NCBI RefSeq assembly: GCF_044324875.1
Contig: NZ_CP172185.1
Origin: Escherichia coli
GTDB lineage: Bacteria > Pseudomonadota > Gammaproteobacteria > Enterobacterales > Enterobacteriaceae
DNA: 64,000 nucleotides
Strand: one strand, 5' to 3'
Each line of letters begins with the position of its first letter. Within the stretch, counting starts at the first letter, position 1. The position numbers were made by a program, and so were the translations under genes. The notes beneath the pieces were generated by a model. That model made no database searches, was not told the DNA's origin, and saw only the letters and a list, made by a program, of their open reading frames with translations. Shown here piece by piece: positions 53,971 to 60,026 of the stretch.

Positions 53971-54177
53971 TTATTTTTGTTCTTCCCATTGTTGATATTC
54001 CCAATAGGGGCGAGAGTCTAAAAAGGCAGGTAATTCATCATTTTTTTCTGGTGAATTTGTCAATTTTATGGAATTTGACAACTCAACAGCCAAAAGTTTT
54101 TTCAGCAGAGAGCTGAAAGTCCATGGGGTATCAGATGTTTTGCAACTCCACATTGCTTTTTCTGTTTCATTGTTCAT
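53971..54177 (-). CDS. Small hypothetical protein
   Basis: 68 aa. Low-GC cargo region. Confidence 0.35.
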   Translation of the reverse strand: MNNETEKAMWSCKTSDTPWTFSSLLKKLLAVELSNSIKLTNSPEKNDELPAFLDSRPYWEYQQWEEQK

Positions 54178-54474
54178 CTCGTGCCTCCTGTAAGTGGATA
54201 ATCATCCTGGTACTATCATACGTGTTGTATGATAAATATTCAATGCTTGCAAATCCAGGTGTAATTGTCTGATTTTACTCTTCTTGCTGTACAGCCTGTG
54301 ATGTGGGCCAGGACGTGGCACTGCATGTCACAATAGCTCCAGGAGCTTCAGTCTCAGCCCTGCTGAACATTGTGTGATTAATTTTTAAAAATGCGAAAAG
54401 AATAATCTCTCTTTTTAGTCGTCCGGCTATGCCTTAATTCTCCCTGAGTCAAAACCTGTATCAGGAGAAGCTGA

Positions 54475-55047
54475 ATGAAAATATCAAAACTGGTTGTTAT
54501 GGCTACAGTATGTTCCACGTTGAGTGCATGCTCTGTGGAAGAGATGGCTGCTGTGAACAAGAAAATCAGTGACGGTGCATTTGCTGTGACGAAAGCGCTC
54601 AACGGGGGAACGGGCTACGCGGATAATGGTATGCCGATCCTTAACAAGCAATTGCCGCCGGAGCAGGATAAACGCGAAAATATTATTGATGTCCCTGTTG
54701 ATGTGGATACCGCAGCAGGCCGACTGAAACGCTATTACAAGTTTTACTCAAATGATGAGGTGAATGCGATACGCAATAACGGCACAACTGACGGAAAATG
54801 GCAGGCAAGTGCGATTATTGACAATGGACATATCTGGGATGCGATGCCGGGCAGTTACTACAAAATGGGAGGAAACTGGCGTAAAAGCAGCTTTGATGAT
54901 CACCTGACGATTGAGGTGGAAAAGAACGGTAAGGGAAGCCGGGTCTATATCACCTATGCTTCAGCTTCTCAGGCGCATTTGCAGGCAAGTTCTCTTGAGC
55001 CTCTGTTTAAGCGAGTGAAGGATGTGGCTGAAGGAAAGGTTCGTTGA
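54475..55047 (+). CDS. Lipoprotein of unknown function
   Basis: Lipobox TLSAC. AGGAGAAG RBS. Confidence 0.6.
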   Translation: MKISKLVVMATVCSTLSACSVEEMAAVNKKISDGAFAVTKALNGGTGYADNGMPILNKQLPPEQDKRENIIDVPVDVDTAAGRLKRYYKFYSNDEVNAIRNNGTTDGKWQASAIIDNGHIWDAMPGSYYKMGGNWRKSSFDDHLTIEVEKNGKGSRVYITYASASQAHLQASSLEPLFKRVKDVAEGKVR

Positions 55048-55270
55048 TGAGCACATCACGGGCAAGCCCTTATGGCTAAAGGAGAGGGAGATTGCCCGTG
55101 GCGGCCCACTTTTTTAATCATTTTTTTACCATGTTGTCCAGTATTTTTACATAAGTGAAACATCTGGTGTTGTTTTCTGTTCATCGTGCTGGAAGTTACA
55201 GGGCTTGTAATTGAACGGGGAGAGATGTAATTTACGTGCGCAAAAATTTTACTCAAGGGGGAGAAAACCG

Positions 55271-55534
55271 ATGAAACCGAATATCCATCCTGAATACCGT
55301 ACTGTGGTGTTCCACGATACCAGTATCGATGAGTACTATAAAATTGGTTCGACCATCAAGACTGAACGTGTGATTGAGCTTGATGGTGTCACCTATCCGT
55401 ACGTAACTATTGACGTTTCCTCTAAGTCGCATCCTTTCTACACCGGCAAACTGAGAACTGTTGCTTCAGAAGGTAACGTGGCGCGCTTTAACCAGCGTTT
55501 CGGGCGTTTTGTTGACACCAAAAAAGGTGCCTGA
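55271..55534 (+). CDS. ykgM: Ribosomal protein L31 type B (zinc-independent paralogue)
   Basis: [31 protein letters not shown]...[28 protein letters not shown] lacks the CxxC zinc motif. Near-identical to the E. coli YkgM I remember. Confidence 0.9.
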
Positions 55535-55580
55535 CCAGAAATTGATCACAGGCGCGCTTGATACGCAAAAGTATTATTTG
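55469..55580 (+). repeat. Direct repeat 1 (last 21 codons of ykgM plus 46 bp downstream)
   Basis: Aligns with 58864-58975; 101/112 identical by hand count. Confidence 0.9.
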
Positions 55581-55640
55581 TATTATTTCTGATATTTTAT
55601 TTCAAAGGCGGTATTTACCGCCTTAATTAGTTTTATCCGT

Positions 55641-56813
55641 TTATTTATTTCCTTTTGAACGATTATGCGTAACGCAAAGCATTTCGCAATTATCAGGCTT
55701 ACTTTCACCCCCCTTACTCCATGCGGAAACATGGTCGGCTTCCATTTCTTTCAAAGCCCAGATTTTTGTTTTATTGGCATTATCTGAACTGGCGCAAAGG
55801 GGGCAGTTTGAAATACCTTGTTGCTCCGCTTTATCTGTTTGCCTTTTGTAGGCTTGTTTTTTAATTTTTTCATCAAAAAAGCGAATGTTTAATAAACGTT
55901 TATCAGATTGACCACCTAACACATATTCCCAGATGCCTTTAATGTTTTTTACACTATCATCCTGATATAATTTATTGATTTGCGTGGCTAATTCACCTGG
56001 ATTGTATGGTTTGTCTTTATAGGTTTCGTATAAACGCCCCCATTCCAGTCCGCACATTTCTTTTTTTACCTCGGTAAATGTGGTGTTAACCCAGTCAATC
56101 ACGCTATTGAAATAGGTTTTTAATTCCTTGATATTGTCATCATTACGATGGGCATTCATGTATTCGCTGATATTTCCTTTACTGACCCAGTTTAACGCAC
56201 ATTCTAAAATTTCCTGGCGTTTAACATTACCTTTGATGTAAGCACTCCATTTTTGCACATTTGAATTAGCAGAATTACTGAATTCTGCTTTTGCCAGTGT
56301 AACAAATTTGCCCGAATACACCGCATTCAATAATTCTTGTTCATTTAAAGGGACGCCAGTAATATTAATCGTTTTAAACCATTCTTTAATTTCGCTTTCT
56401 GTACCCTTACATTTGTAAATCAGCAAAGTGGTTTGTTTGATTTTCTCTTGTTGGTCTTGCGGTAAACTATGGAAATAGTATGGCGTGCCTTTATCATCTA
56501 TAATGGCGAATTTTCCGGTAACAAACCGCCCAATACTGGTAATGCGCTGCTGACCATCCAGTACTTCAAATGTATCTTCTGTATCTTTGTCAGGTTGATT
56601 AAAATAAATCAAACCGAGCGGATAACCTTTTAATACTGACTGGATAACTGCCACATCTTTCTTACCGTCTGCATAAATATAATTGCGTTGATATTCGGGC
56701 TGAATGGTAAGCTTTCCTGATAAACCAAACAAGCCTTTTCCCTCCAGTTCATTATAAACAAATCCATCGCACAATTGTTCAACGGTGATTGATGTATCTA
56801 ATTGTGTTTTCAT
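55641..56813 (-). CDS. DUF262 (ParB-like nuclease N-terminus, DGQQR) protein with a C-terminal HNH nuclease
   Basis: [14 protein letters not shown]-terminal CPLC...[11 protein letters not shown]...N...[12 protein letters not shown]. Confidence 0.8.
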
Positions 56814-56828
56814 TTTTCACTTTTCCTT

Positions 56829-57983
56829 TTATTTATTTTGTGGATTGATGTGTTTAATAAGAATGCGTCCATAAGTACGTTTGCCGTTAATAACTGTACA
56901 CCCACCCCTATCTTCAGAATGTTGAGAATAATTTAAAATCTCCAGTATCTCTTCGGGAGTTGATGCTCGTGTATTACCACTTGCTTGCCAAATAATTTCA
57001 AACTGTTCAGGACAATATTTATCCAAAAAGCTAATTGGCACGCCCATAACTCCTGCATAATCGCTAGGAATACCGTTAGTTCTGGGCACTTCAATAGCAT
57101 CATAATTGTCATATGCCTGATAAGCGTTAGGGTCATTGATAATTTGTTTGTTGTATTTTAAATTATCCGCCATAGACATTAGCTGTAAAGATTGATGCCG
57201 TCTGCCGTGTTCAATATTGGTAAACCAACAAGAGTTACCCAAACGAGTATAATCACCTATATATCCTAGACGCTCCGCTTTTTTCTTATCAGCTTCCCTC
57301 ACATCAGCACCTTGTGGTACAGCAAAAACCATATCATTACCATTCCCAGTAGCACCCAACCAAATTTTATTTCCTTTGATAAGTGGAAAAATCTCTTTAT
57401 AAGTAATAGCATTCATATTACCGATAACGGCAAACTGCTTTTTACCTTCCATAATCCATGCCATAAATTCGCGAAACAGCGAAAAAGGCGGATTGGTGAT
57501 AATTATGTCGCTTTCATCGCGTAGAGCTTTGATTTCATCACTACGAAAATCGCCATCACCCTGCAGGTATTGCCATTTAATATCTTTAAAATCAATTACA
57601 CCATCGTGATTACTGTCTTCGGTTAGCGTGTAAATTTTGCCATGTTTCTGGCTTTTATCACTGTCGTATTGTTCACTTTCGCTTTCAAATAATGATGGCT
57701 GATAAGCTGTGTTTAACTGTTTGGATTGATGAGCGTAGCTGGTACTGATGAGCTTCTTTAATCCAAGTCGTTCAAAGTTTTGTGCAAAATAAAGTGTGAA
57801 ATTGCTCCACTCGGGGTCATCACATGGTAAGAGAATGGTTTTGCCACGAAATACGTCTTTATTGAAATCAAGATAGGCATTCATCTCTTTTTCAATATCA
57901 TGGTATTGGGTGTAAAATTCGTCATTTTTGGCTTTTTTTGCAGCAGAAAGATTACTGTTTTTGGCAGAAATATTCTTTGACAT
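56829..57983 (-). CDS. N6-adenine DNA methyltransferase, EcoRI-methylase-like family
   Basis: NDEFYTQ N-terminus, ILLPCDD, catalytic IIITNPPFSLF. GGAGG RBS. Confidence 0.75.
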   Translation of the reverse strand: MSKNISAKNSNLSAAKKAKNDEFYTQYHDIEKEMNAYLDFNKDVFRGKTILLPCDDPEWSNFTLYFAQNFERLGLKKLISTSYAHQSKQLNTAYQPSLFESESEQYDSDKSQKHGKIYTLTEDSNHDGVIDFKDIKWQYLQGDGDFRSDEIKALRDESDIIITNPPFSLFREFMAWIMEGKKQFAVIGNMNAITYKEIFPLIKGNKIWLGATGNGNDMVFAVPQGADVREADKKKAERLGYIGDYTRLGNSCWFTNIEHGRRHQSLQLMSMADNLKYNKQIINDPNAYQAYDNYDAIEVPRTNGIPSDYAGVMGVPISFLDKYCPEQFEIIWQASGNTRASTPEEILEILNYSQHSEDRGGCTVINGKRTYGRILIKHINPQNK

Positions 57984-58033
57984 TTCAAACCTCCAAAACA
58001 GTATTGAAGGTTTGAAAAAACGGGGTTACATTA

Positions 58034-58152
58034 TGCTTGTTGCTTGTTGCTTGTTGCTTGTTGCTTGTTGCTTGTTGCTTGTTGCTTGTTGCTTGTTGCT
58101 TGTTGCTTGTTGCTTGTTGCTTGTTGCTTGTTGCTTGTTGCTTGTTGCTTGT
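58034..58152. repeat. Perfect heptanucleotide microsatellite (TGCTTGT)x17
   Basis: 119 bp = 17 x 7, no interruptions. Lies 51 bp upstream of the methyltransferase ATG and 60 bp downstream of the ccdB-like stop (both genes on the minus strand). Confidence 0.98.
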
Positions 58153-58211
58153 ATTAGCATTGGATTTTCCCTTTTACTTGTCAAGTATTTTCTTTTGGAT
58201 TCTGAAGTTTT

Positions 58212-58538
58212 TCACGTATTCGTAACGATGGCATCAAGTGCAGCGATAATTTCATTTCTGGATGAAGAAATATTACATATAAAATCTTTGCTGTTTATTT
58301 TTTTTGCATCCAGGAACGTGAGCGCCGGGGTGAACACATAGAAATCCGATGTCTCTATTTTAACTAATGGCGTTATCCTTTTCTTTTTAAGCTCAATATC
58401 ATTTTTTGATACCAGAGGCACGACTATCCTTGTGGTTAAATCGTCAAAATAATCATTCTGGAGAATAAGGTAGAACGGCCAGAGTTTATTCGTTCTGACC
58501 GATGGATTGCGGTATACATCAAATTGCTTTGGCATCAC
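58212..58538 (-). CDS. ccdB: CcdB-family toxin
   Basis: FDVYRN...PFYLILQNDYFDDLTTRIVVPL resembles the CcdB N-terminal pattern. The start overlaps the antitoxin stop. Confidence 0.6.
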   Translation of the reverse strand: MMPKQFDVYRNPSVRTNKLWPFYLILQNDYFDDLTTRIVVPLVSKNDIELKKKRITPLVKIETSDFYVFTPALTFLDAKKINSKDFICNISSSRNEIIAALDAIVTNT

Positions 58539-58783
58539 AGACTCCCAAAGAAATCGTCATCCGTCAACATTCCTGCTTTTGCCATAAATTTATTCATAGT
58601 GTGCATATCCTGTTTTTCTTCTTCCCGCTCTACAGTTTTGGCCTCGATAGCCTGTGCCAGAAGGTTATCCAGTGTTGCCGACAGGTTCATGTCCATACTC
58701 CGGGCTTTATCAACCAGTGAGGCCGTCAGGTAAACGTTGGTGCTTCTTTTGTTGCTGTTACGAGTGGTGGCAACTGTATTCAT
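58535..58783 (-). CDS. ccdA: CcdA-family antitoxin
   Basis: AGGAG 9 nt upstream of ATG 58783 (MNTVATTRNSNKRSTNVYLTASLVDKARSMDMNLSATLDNLL...). The longer track ORF to 58879 runs into the ykgM-derived repeat and is rejected. Confidence 0.6.
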   Translation of the reverse strand: MNTVATTRNSNKRSTNVYLTASLVDKARSMDMNLSATLDNLLAQAIEAKTVEREEEKQDMHTMNKFMAKAGMLTDDDFFGSL

Positions 58784-58863
58784 TATGCTTGCTCCTGTGC
58801 GCAGATGTATGCGCATAATTATGATGGGGGAAGGATAAACAATCAAGTGTGATCCTTCCGTTA

Positions 58864-58975
58864 GAAGGTAATGTGGCATGCTTTAACCAGCGTTTCGGGT
58901 GTTTTGTTGACACCAAAAAAGGTGCCTGATCAGAAATCGATCACAGGCGCTATTGATATGCAAAAGTATTGCTTG
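58864..58975 (+). repeat. Direct repeat 2 (displaced ykgM 3' fragment encoding [21 protein letters not shown])
   Basis: Aligns with 55469-55580. Confidence 0.9.
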
Positions 58976-59189
58976 AGTGTCTGAGGTCGGTTATTTTATG
59001 TTTCACAAGTAAAGAAGCATTTAAAAAGAAACTCACAGTCCATATTCCTTCATCCCCGGTTACGGGGATTTTTTTTAGCTGCTGTCTGGTGAGGAGGAAA
59101 GGGGCTGTGTCGGGCAGGGCGCTGTAAGGCTGCGATTGTCCGGGTGATGTCTGAACATGCGGTATGTTTGTGTTAAACAAGGGGGGAGT

Positions 59190-59378
59190 ATGTGGATACT
59201 GATTTTCTGGCTTTCAACACCATATTCAGTGTCATCCAGCGTTGCCAGACAACCAACGCTTGCTGTTCATTCTCAGGAGTTCGCCAGCGAAAGGGCCTGC
59301 AGGAATGCGCTGGCTGAGATGAAGAAGGTGAATGTCGGAGAACTGACCCTGAGGGGTATCTGTGTCTCAAAAGAATAG
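59190..59378 (+). CDS. Small protein with a hydrophobic N-terminus
   Basis: GGGGGGAG upstream of ATG 59190. 62 aa. Confidence 0.35.
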   Translation: MWILIFWLSTPYSVSSSVARQPTLAVHSQEFASERACRNALAEMKKVNVGELTLRGICVSKE

Positions 59379-59430
59379 TGGGGGAGAGGGAGCGAACCAG
59401 GCAGTTTTATCAGGAATGTGATTCCGGCGA

Positions 59431-59490
59431 ACCCGCTCGCCGCAGTCCGGCGACCGAACGTCAGTGAGTAAGCGGACGAGGAAGCGGAAT
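59431..59490. other. Sequence resembling the ColE1/pBR322 region that holds a PriA-type primosome assembly site
   Basis: CCCGCTCGCCGCAGTCCGGCGACCGAACGTCAGTGAGTAAGCGGACGAGGAAGCGGAATG compared with the remembered pUC/pBR322 ACCGCTCGCCGCAGCCGAACGACCGAGCGCAGCGAGTCAGTGAGCGAGGAAGCGGAAGAG. Confidence 0.3.
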
Positions 59491-59709
59491 GTCACCGTTC
59501 TTTCATAATGCACGAACGCTGTGTGGTTACATGGGGAAAGGATGAATGTCACCATTCTGTATCTGTTTCTGAAAAACAGTTCCGCTTGTTACCCTGTAAT
59601 TGCCGACTGGCGTTAGCATACAGAGGCGGTATTATCCCCTGTGATATCAGGGGTTATTTTGTTTTGCTCTGTAAGACCTGGCCAGCTATTATGCTGGCCT
59701 TTTTGTGGT

Positions 59710-59868
59710 TTATTGTTCGCAGTCCAGCATTGCAAATAATTTTCGTTTCTGTTCCTTCACATACTCAACATCAACAGTACAATCCAGATAACTTAACTCA
59801 TCTTCTGTCCAGGCATTGATGGATTCTTTTATTCGGTGTGTCACATCAGGTGTGAGTATGTCGCGCAT
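59710..59868 (-). CDS. Possible 52-aa ORF overlapping the end of the upstream 61-aa ORF
   Basis: MRDILTPDVTHRIKESINAWTEDELSYLDCTVDVEYVKEQKRKLFAMLDCEQ. Below the track cutoff. 28-nt overlap with 59841-60026. Confidence 0.3.
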   Translation of the reverse strand: MRDILTPDVTHRIKESINAWTEDELSYLDCTVDVEYVKEQKRKLFAMLDCEQ

Positions 59869-60026
59869 TTCTCAATGGTATCCCGGCTTATTTCTCCTCG
59901 TGGAGATTCAAGCAGAGGAATTACGGCCTGATCTCCCGGAGGGAGTATAAGACGTAATTCATATTTAAGCGTTTCGTTGAGTAAACTACAGAAAGCACTG
60001 TATTTCTCTTTCCGGGTACTGTTCAT
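59841..60026 (-). CDS. Small hypothetical protein (61 aa)
   Basis: ORF track entry. First gene of a possible two-gene pair. Confidence 0.35.
   Translation of the reverse strand: MNSTRKEKYSAFCSLLNETLKYELRLILPPGDQAVIPLLESPRGEISRDTIEKCATYSHLM

Follow-up and report, generated by a model that had tools for sequence, protein, structure and literature searches.

An EcoRI-family methylase with variable, presumed recognition segments and its constant DUF262-HNH partner: a candidate restriction-modification cassette on an Escherichia coli integrative element

Introduction

In restriction-modification (R-M) systems of Types I and III, exchangeable recognition domains are a feature of the modification or specificity subunit, which is joined by a generic restriction subunit. 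The nuclease of the EcoRI system, R.EcoRI, is a PD-(D/E)XK enzyme, and the recognition sites known among EcoRI-family methylases include GAATTC. A methylase acting on RAATTY has been reported from Campylobacter jejuni (PMC4335053). The nucleases GmrSD and BrxU act alone on modified DNA, and SspE is the restriction partner of a modification cluster (PMC12707154). Within a 64-kb stretch of Escherichia coli DNA (contig NZ_CP172185.1, the whole of which is referred to as the window), the list of open reading frames (ORFs) places a two-gene cassette on the minus strand, consisting of a methylase gene, M, lying 5' of a nuclease gene, R. M (56829..57983, minus strand) encodes a 384 aa EcoRI-family (gamma-class) N6-adenine DNA methyltransferase, and R (55641..56813, minus strand) a 390 aa protein made up of a ParB/sulfiredoxin (Srx)-like DUF262 domain, a helical middle and a zinc-HNH domain, both identified from the ORFs and from matches to Pfam and PADLOC. 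The pair is predicted to be a functional two-gene R-M cassette carried as cargo of an E. coli integrative and conjugative element (ICE). Among related loci the presumed recognition segments of M are swapped while R stays constant, which suggests that R probably takes its target from M rather than reading the DNA sequence itself.

Results

The methylase and the nuclease are intact

M matches the Pfam family EcoRI_methylase (PF13651) from end to end (E = 1.6e-131, 439 bits against a gathering cut-off of 26.4). It is collinear with, and 40% identical to, the genuine M.EcoRI, the reference for which was encoded on a 5.6-kb E. coli plasmid where it adjoins an annotated ‘type-2 restriction enzyme EcoRI’. 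The catalytic motif IV, NPPF (M residues 164–167; 57483..57494, minus strand), is invariant in 58 and in 55 homologues. A predicted model of M (pLDDT 86) matched N6-methyladenine methyltransferases such as M.TaqI, MmeI, HsdM and M.BseCI in its N-terminal part only, the matches spanning 130–204 N-terminal residues (~150–200 for these DNA methyltransferases), and a structural search with the same model found no counterpart for the C-terminal half among solved structures. M is an intact EcoRI-family N6-adenine methyltransferase. Two stretches of M are hypervariable and rich in indels and are presumed to be target-recognition modules: segment 1 (residues ~208–254; 57222..57362, minus strand), of ‘type 8’ in the window, and segment 2 (residues ~331–368; 56880..56993, minus strand), of ‘type 24’. 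Both appear to sit past the catalytic domain, where gamma-class methylases hold their target-recognition domain.

R consists of an N-terminal DUF262/GmrSD_N domain (residues 36–166; 56316..56708, minus strand; Pfam E = 3e-21), which carries the motif DGQQR (residues 86–90; 56544..56558, minus strand) in invariant columns, and a C-terminal HNH nuclease domain (residues 337–390; 55644..55805, minus strand) identified by Pfam HNH (PF01844, E = 1.5e-6), by invariant columns and by structural matches to HNH nucleases. The HNH/zinc motif is arranged as C337-x2-C340...D360-H361...N375...C380-x2-H383-N384, the C-terminus reading CPLC...DH...N...CVTHN, and the predicted roles are those of a zinc site for CxxC...CxxH and of catalytic residues for D360-H361, N375 and N384. 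Relatives of R fall into subfamily A, to which the window R belongs, and subfamily B, whose members have 359–361 aa and ~40% identity to the window R. Within a 66-sequence alignment covering both subfamilies, the HNH residues C340, D360, H361, N375, C380 and N384 are invariant, as are Q42, R43, E83, D86, G87, Q88, Q89 and R90 of the DUF262 pocket; C337 is conserved in at least 90% of the sequences and H383 is not listed among the invariant columns.

The closest folds to an AF2 model of R (pLDDT 81) were BrxU, as the top match, SspE, DndI and the ParB CTPases. No DUF1524 domain was matched in R by Pfam at E <= 0.01, none of the Pfam RE_* families matched it, and no helicase-like structural match was found, the domains of R being DUF262 and HNH only. 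R is an intact nuclease in which a ParB/sulfiredoxin-like DUF262 domain is followed by a helical middle domain and a zinc-stabilized HNH site, and the invariant DGQQR pocket together with the ParB/Srx-like fold suggests that it binds a nucleotide. An earlier note on this DNA had named an EcoRI-type methylase with NPPF and a DUF262 (DGQQR) protein fused to HNH, 15 nt downstream of the methylase and on the same strand; Pfam, the residue positions and the ORF coordinates agree with all of this. The profile searches that it had proposed gave matches to DUF262, HNH, EcoRI_methylase and to the PADLOC models REase_II and MTase_II.

The pair is inherited as a unit

Of 160 related loci, which come from many phyla, 149 encode an EcoRI-family M directly 5' of R; the contigs of the other 11 are too short to judge. 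These loci had been picked by similarity to R. In the genome set, M lies directly 5' of R and on the same strand in 76 of 80 species-level loci, and the remaining four have at most 848 nt upstream; one of the four shows a Bro-N-like insertion similar to those found between M and R elsewhere. The metagenome set gave 73 of 80 loci, with at most 463 nt upstream in the other seven. When M homologues were used as the starting point instead, R was found downstream in 3 of 3 look-ups. In the window the two genes are separated by a 15-nt spacer (56814..56828, minus strand) that holds the ribosome-binding region of R, and the spacing among relatives is mostly 0–30 nt, or an overlap of 1–4 nt. The pairing of M and R proposed in the earlier note is borne out by linkage across phyla, plasmids, ICEs and phage.

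R has thousands of relatives, spread over a very wide range of taxa that includes Pasteurellaceae, Moraxella, Neisseria, Acinetobacter, Bacteroidota, Chloroflexota, Patescibacteria and one Woesearchaeota bin. A search of 1.84 billion representatives returned 431 clusters at E <= 1e-30, many of them full length and with 37–52% identity. A 9-kb Moraxella plasmid and a Flavobacterium phage also carry pairs, and those of subfamily B comprise Aeromonas, Ruania and Dietzia plasmids as well as the 73 metagenome loci. On a Chryseobacterium plasmid with a subfamily-B R, M is a frameshifted remnant only. One representative carries EcoRI_methylase, GmrSD_N and HNH in a single chain. The co-occurrence of M and R is far beyond chance; they are inherited together, M then R, essentially wherever the family occurs, and are predicted to be functionally coupled.

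No conserved third gene accompanies the pair, the loci with a large gap between M and R holding unrelated genes for Bro-N-like, RhuM-like, Fic and nucleotidyltransferase proteins or a second copy of M. The spacer is a recurrent insertion point (L022, L032, L067, L034, L037, L016 and L051), with Bro-N-like insertions at three loci (L022, L032 and L067), a RhuM-like one at L034 and a second EcoRI-family M at L051. A homologous protein between M and R was seen only in the gammaproteobacterial loci L002 (2984–3733) and L070 (5120–5998), at 26% identity (E = 3e-14); it has no Pfam or PADLOC match, and its stretch QIDL...TIE(I/V)RSSFP recalls PD-(D/E)XK. On a Dietzia plasmid (L092 3613–6047) the pair adjoins genes for a Shedu nuclease and an Abi protein and thus has the setting of a defence island, and in L111 (1–463) a PIN-like gene lies 5' of R. 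Within E. coli, an IS1A element splits R in strain 2015C-3121 (L083 4042–5991), where M and ccdAB are intact, and a truncated R cluster (P0043) of 298 aa has 38 member sequences; these two observations point to repeated loss of R in E. coli.

Segments of M are exchanged beside a constant R

In the alignment of relatives, R is evenly conserved along its full length and has no variable stretch. Mean identity among 58 subfamily-A loci was 74% for R, 71% for the M core and 20% for the M variable segments, the corresponding values for 41 subfamily-B loci being 67%, 71% and 29%. When 101 M proteins were pooled, 15 types of segment 1 and 32 types of segment 2 were distinguished, occurring in 75 combinations. 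Among the subfamily-A loci the segment types are discrete, each is conserved across phyla, and their distribution follows neither R nor the M core (Spearman ~0.05). Types recur across R subfamilies A and B, which are ~40% mutually identical, and in M.EcoRI. The M core, on the other hand, tracks the R subfamily (A-A 0.71, B-B 0.73, A-B 0.54).

The exchange can be followed between close relatives. In 11 locus pairs, intact R proteins that are 88–97.5% identical stand beside M proteins of different module types; one such pair comes from two strains of Haemophilus paraphrohaemolyticus, with 96.6% identity in R and 72.6% in M. Between the window and E. coli STEC2018-553, R is 95.9% and CcdB 97% identical, and the DNA of M is 94–100% identical in its 5' half and 57–73% identical in its 3' half, segment 1 having been replaced. 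Between loci that share a module type, M and R have diverged to an equal degree (66–69% and 65–69%, respectively). The idea that R evolves more slowly than M was dropped on this account, the apparent difference being due to module replacement and to the picking of loci by R.

Four loci carry an M with a nonsense or frameshift mutation, and in all of them R is intact, with 72–73 of 73 family-invariant residues: L093 1568–2501, on a plasmid of Chryseobacterium taklimakanense, L055, L059 and L011. In-frame stops noted in M of two further loci, L116 and L129, proved to be natural stop codons and were set aside.

M.EcoRI itself (L090 2447–3427, plasmid pU90-3) carries type 9 in segment 1 and type 1 in segment 2. 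The score of its core against the subfamily-B M proteins is 0.66, compared with 0.54 between subfamilies A and B. From these module types and this closeness, the classical EcoRI system may stem from replacement of the nuclease partner.

Catalogue status

Both proteins match existing type II profile models of PADLOC over essentially their full length. R residues 20–390 align to positions 17–372 of the 372 in REase_II PDLC03418 (288 bits, E = 3e-86), and M gives a full-length match to MTase_II PDLC03297 (320 bits, E = 7e-96); subfamily B scores higher on the two models, at 456 and 408 bits. With matches of this kind, defence-finding tools would already report the pair as type II R-M. The suggestion of a new architecture made in the earlier note does not stand beside these models and relatives that run into the thousands. 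The models themselves name no enzyme and give neither a recognition site nor a mechanism. NCBIfam gave no match to the pair, a sequence search of the PDB returned no solved relative, and the literature yielded neither a paper on a DUF262-HNH nuclease with an EcoRI-like methylase nor a defined site, a 2008 survey of type II folds being outside its scope. The M-R architecture is thus catalogued, yet uncharacterised as far as we found. Of the possibility raised earlier, that the pair is already a REBASE type II system with a defined site, the cataloguing holds at the level of profile models and a defined site was not found.

Chromosomal setting

In E. coli the cassette lies in the cargo region of an ICE, flanked by annotated TIGR03756/03757 ICE proteins, a TraG-like protein and an integrase-domain protein, and it is present in 6 of 5,426 complete genomes, each time with ccdAB. 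The neighbouring toxin gene ccdB (58212..58535, minus strand; Pfam CcdB E = 1.5e-27, and RefSeq annotation of an identical allele) and antitoxin gene ccdA (58535..58783, minus strand; Pfam CcdA E = 2.2e-15, and RefSeq annotation) were absent from all 80 non-E. coli genome loci. CcdAB is for this reason regarded as a neighbour, and was ruled out as a component of the system or as the layer of control that the earlier note had seen in it, being linked only in the E. coli ICE alleles. Toxin-antitoxin genes directly 5' of the pair were seen in unrelated contexts, these being ccdAB in the window (58212–58783), phd/yoeB on a JGI contig (L179 2347–2858) and, 5' of R, the PIN-like gene of L111.

The only sigma-70-like site ahead of M on the same strand in the promoter scan lies 5' of ccdA (58818–58846), and the interval from ccdB to M yielded no sigma-70-like promoter. 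At the other end of the cassette, a gene for a type B (ykgM-like) ribosomal protein L31 (55271–55534, plus strand) is ICE-borne and convergent with R; window-type alleles have this gene and the 2013C-3033 allele lacks it. A GC-rich hairpin between the two convergent genes (55605..55624, either strand) is a candidate two-way terminator, and a weak one, the terminator scan having returned no more sites than in shuffled sequence. No known RNA families were found in positions 54000–60000.

A heptamer repeat within an upstream ORF

Between ccdB and M lies a hypervariable heptanucleotide repeat (58034..58152, minus strand) that reads (ACAAGCA)17 on the coding strand and was scored by Tandem Repeats Finder (TRF) as 17.0 copies with a 100% match. 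Across seven E. coli alleles the copy number is 17 (window), 14, 11, 12, 9, 2 and 2, and copy numbers inside one allele group differ by multiples of three. The repeat is spanned by a short upstream ORF (uORF; 58026..58160, minus strand) of 44 aa here, which starts 8 nt ahead of the repeat and is preceded by a Shine-Dalgarno-like box, AAGGGA, that ends 7 nt short of the ATG. When the number of copies is a multiple of three, as in the 12- and 9-copy alleles, the uORF stops 1 nt before the M start codon, over the Shine-Dalgarno sequence of M; for other copy numbers, that of the window included, the stop lies 42–47 nt 5' of M. The repeat was also considered as a promoter spacer and rejected, there being no sigma-70-like pair across it and the TTGACA 25 nt upstream lacking a good -10 box.

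From this arrangement we infer a regulatory role for the uORF. In the E. coli alleles, expression of M and R is probably tuned by the slippage-prone heptamer repeat in the uORF, and phase-variable control of the pair by the repeat is plausible. The earlier note had described a microsatellite as a layer of control; the repeat is real, with 17 perfect 7-nt copies and hypervariable length, although it is a minisatellite inside a short uORF and not a classical microsatellite. An independent 17-copy heptamer, GCGAACC, lies directly 5' of M in a Methylotenera bin (L077 4782–4937), inside a short ORF, and like the E. coli repeat it stands behind TTGACAAG. No heptamer-type repeat was found 5' of M in the other 63 loci examined.

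Discussion

A proposed model in which M guides R

In the mechanism that we favour, DNA sequence specificity would reside in M, through two exchangeable recognition modules in its C-terminal half, and R would have no matching sequence specificity of its own. Through M, R would be guided to unmethylated M sites or licensed to act at them, much as the Res subunit of Type III systems relies on Mod, with DUF262 serving as a nucleoside triphosphate (NTP)-dependent switch that gates the HNH cut, and methylation of host sites by M would prevent self-cleavage. A less favoured variant would have R reading N6-methyladenine marks in any sequence context, as SspE and DndI read phosphorothioate. That the specificity is set by M, with R as a specificity-agnostic, nucleotide-gated nuclease, is in our estimate about as likely as not. 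The variable M modules beside an invariant R, and the intact R at M-defective loci, are consistent with specificity residing in the modification subunit and a restriction subunit inactive in its absence, as in Type III. We share the suspicion of the earlier note that the pair differs from plain type II, for a reason that it did not give, namely that the presumed recognition segments of M are shuffled and R is constant.

Several points weigh against guidance of R by M. Existing resources label the family type II, and an R that is small, separate and equipped with an HNH and a zinc site of its own also fits a classical type IIP enzyme. The part of the variable segments in setting specificity is deduced from their post-catalytic position and their discrete, conserved types. 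Retrieval by similarity to R narrows the diversity of R, a bias which the near-identical-R pairs and the look-ups from the M side reduce but do not remove. Three of the four M-defective loci are metagenome bins, in which assembly errors occur, the isolate plasmid L093 may carry indel errors, and other methylases in the M-defective genomes could protect the DNA. The M-R fusion was seen only once and is possibly an artefact of gene calling.

Alternative explanations

If the pair were a classical type IIP system, R alone would recognise and cut a fixed short site, plausibly with the AATT core of other EcoRI-family systems, and M would methylate the same site; the variable segments of M would then be loops without effect on specificity, or all variants of M would cover the site of R. 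The separate and adjacent genes with intact catalytic motifs, the full-length matches to PADLOC type II models and the deep co-divergence of R subfamilies with M cores are what such a system would show, and the one E. coli strain with IS1 in R and M kept follows the usual order of type II decay. A fixed site is harder to reconcile with 75 module combinations beside an R that has no variable region, and with module types each conserved across phyla, which speaks for function and not for neutral loops. Because R proteins 92–97% identical stand beside unrelated modules (up to 97.5% in a range that starts at 92%), re-matching of R's own recognition is implausible. The same modules serve R subfamilies ~40% mutually identical, a many-to-many pairing like that of Type I and Type III systems and unlike classical type II. 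Intact R at M-defective loci also stands against this explanation, and AATT-core palindromes showed no special depletion in 797 kb of host loci, a weak and uninformative test for the recognition site. Altogether we regard a classical type IIP system as unlikely, though it retains real weight.

Many-to-many pairing of M modules and R would also be accounted for if R sensed the mark itself, reading N6-methyladenine in any context, sparing marked and cutting unmarked DNA, with M writing the marks alone and making no contact to R. The closest solved folds to R are those of the DUF262 modification sensors BrxU, SspE and DndI, and SspE, described as partnering a modification cluster in restriction (PMC12707154), offers a precedent. 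Guidance of R by M is nonetheless preferred to such sensing because the M core diverges in step with the R subfamily and one fusion protein exists, both of which hint at direct contact, and because of the M-defective loci. An intact R beside a broken M should be lethal under the mark-sensing and the classical models alike, although the data on this are weak. No known m6A reader domain was detected in R by Pfam or by the structural search, and we consider mark sensing improbable. A further explanation would make R a type IV nuclease of the GmrSD/BrxU kind, directed against modified phage DNA, and M an independent passenger, such as an anti-restriction methylase belonging to the mobile element. 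DUF262 with DGQQR, the best structural match to BrxU and the few loci that tolerate R without a working M are in keeping with it. However, R was never seen without an M gene or M remnant (0 of the 149 loci that could be judged), which makes a type IV nuclease with a passenger methylase unlikely; stop and start codons overlap at many M-R loci, the M core tracks the R subfamily, the C-terminal domain of R is Pfam HNH and not DUF1524, and linkage across phyla, plasmids and phage would not persist for an independent passenger. This last explanation is, to our mind, very improbable indeed.

Implications

Returning to guidance of R by M, we put forward a broader proposal only tentatively, judging it somewhat less likely to hold than to fail. 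The family would be an unrecognised R-M class mislabelled as type II, in which a two-module EcoRI-family methylase targets and a ParB/Srx-like NTP switch joined to HNH cuts unspecifically, as a minimal, helicase-free counterpart of Type III. The same tentative judgement covers, jointly, its extent, which would take in bacteria, Candidate Phyla Radiation (CPR) lineages, an archaeal bin, plasmids and phage, with repeat-mediated phase control in some lineages. If M alone sets the specificity, ‘type II’ is the wrong label, as to mechanism, in thousands of annotations of this family, and the pair would be a compact system (~380 + 390 aa) that combines naturally swappable DNA recognition with a generic nuclease; modular recognition of this kind bears on the diversification of restriction specificity and on enzyme engineering. 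The ParB/Srx switch fold, which occurs in chromosome segregation, type IV restriction and phosphorothioate defence, would also extend to methylation-based self/non-self discrimination. If instead the classical reading is true, this is an ordinary, very widespread and uncharacterised type II family. The E. coli isolates with near-identical R beside two M alleles are direct material for the question.

Comparison with known systems

R gives partial matches to two further PADLOC models, Menshen NsnA (E = 2e-29) and PD-T4-2_A (E = 2e-14), over residues ~32–250, which take in DUF262 and part of the middle region. PADLOC gave no match to ccdA or ccdB, the remaining neighbours (L31 and hypothetical proteins) not having been scanned for NsnB or NsnC. 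In common with GmrSD and BrxU, R has DUF262 with an invariant DGQQR at its N-terminus, then a helical region, and at its C-terminus a nuclease of the His-Me finger kind. In contrast to these, the C-terminus of R is Pfam HNH with a zinc site and not DUF1524, its length is 390 aa against ~580, and it is paired with a methylase in all 149 loci that could be judged.

With SspE and DndI the likeness is structural, and the nuclease domain is DUF1524 in these proteins and HNH in R. They are associated with phosphorothioate made by a multi-gene cluster, whereas the modification here would be N6-methyladenine made by a single methylase. The earlier note had assumed that DUF262 nucleases work without a cognate methylase. 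This does not hold as a general rule; since SspE and DndI serve as the restriction arm of phosphorothioate modification systems, the premise of DUF262 nucleases acting alone is incomplete.

On the side of the methylase, the closest described system is that of EcoRI, whose M belongs to the same Pfam family, is collinear and 40% identical, and has variable segments that fall in module types of the family described here. The partner nuclease is unrelated, R being DUF262 plus HNH, and the gene order on the EcoRI plasmid is R then M, whereas it is M then R in the window. Type II systems at large share with the pair the separate, adjacent genes for methylase and nuclease, here 15 nt apart and with catalytic motifs intact. 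Type III systems (Mod and Res, for example EcoP15I) resemble it in logic only, with one or more exchangeable recognition regions beside a conserved NTP-binding and nuclease subunit, and the putative simple-repeat control 5' of the methylase recalls phase-variable mod genes. The parts are different: M is of the EcoRI family and not a beta-class Mod, and in place of a helicase-like (SF2) ATPase with PD-(D/E)XK, R is a 390-aa ParB/Srx-like protein with HNH.

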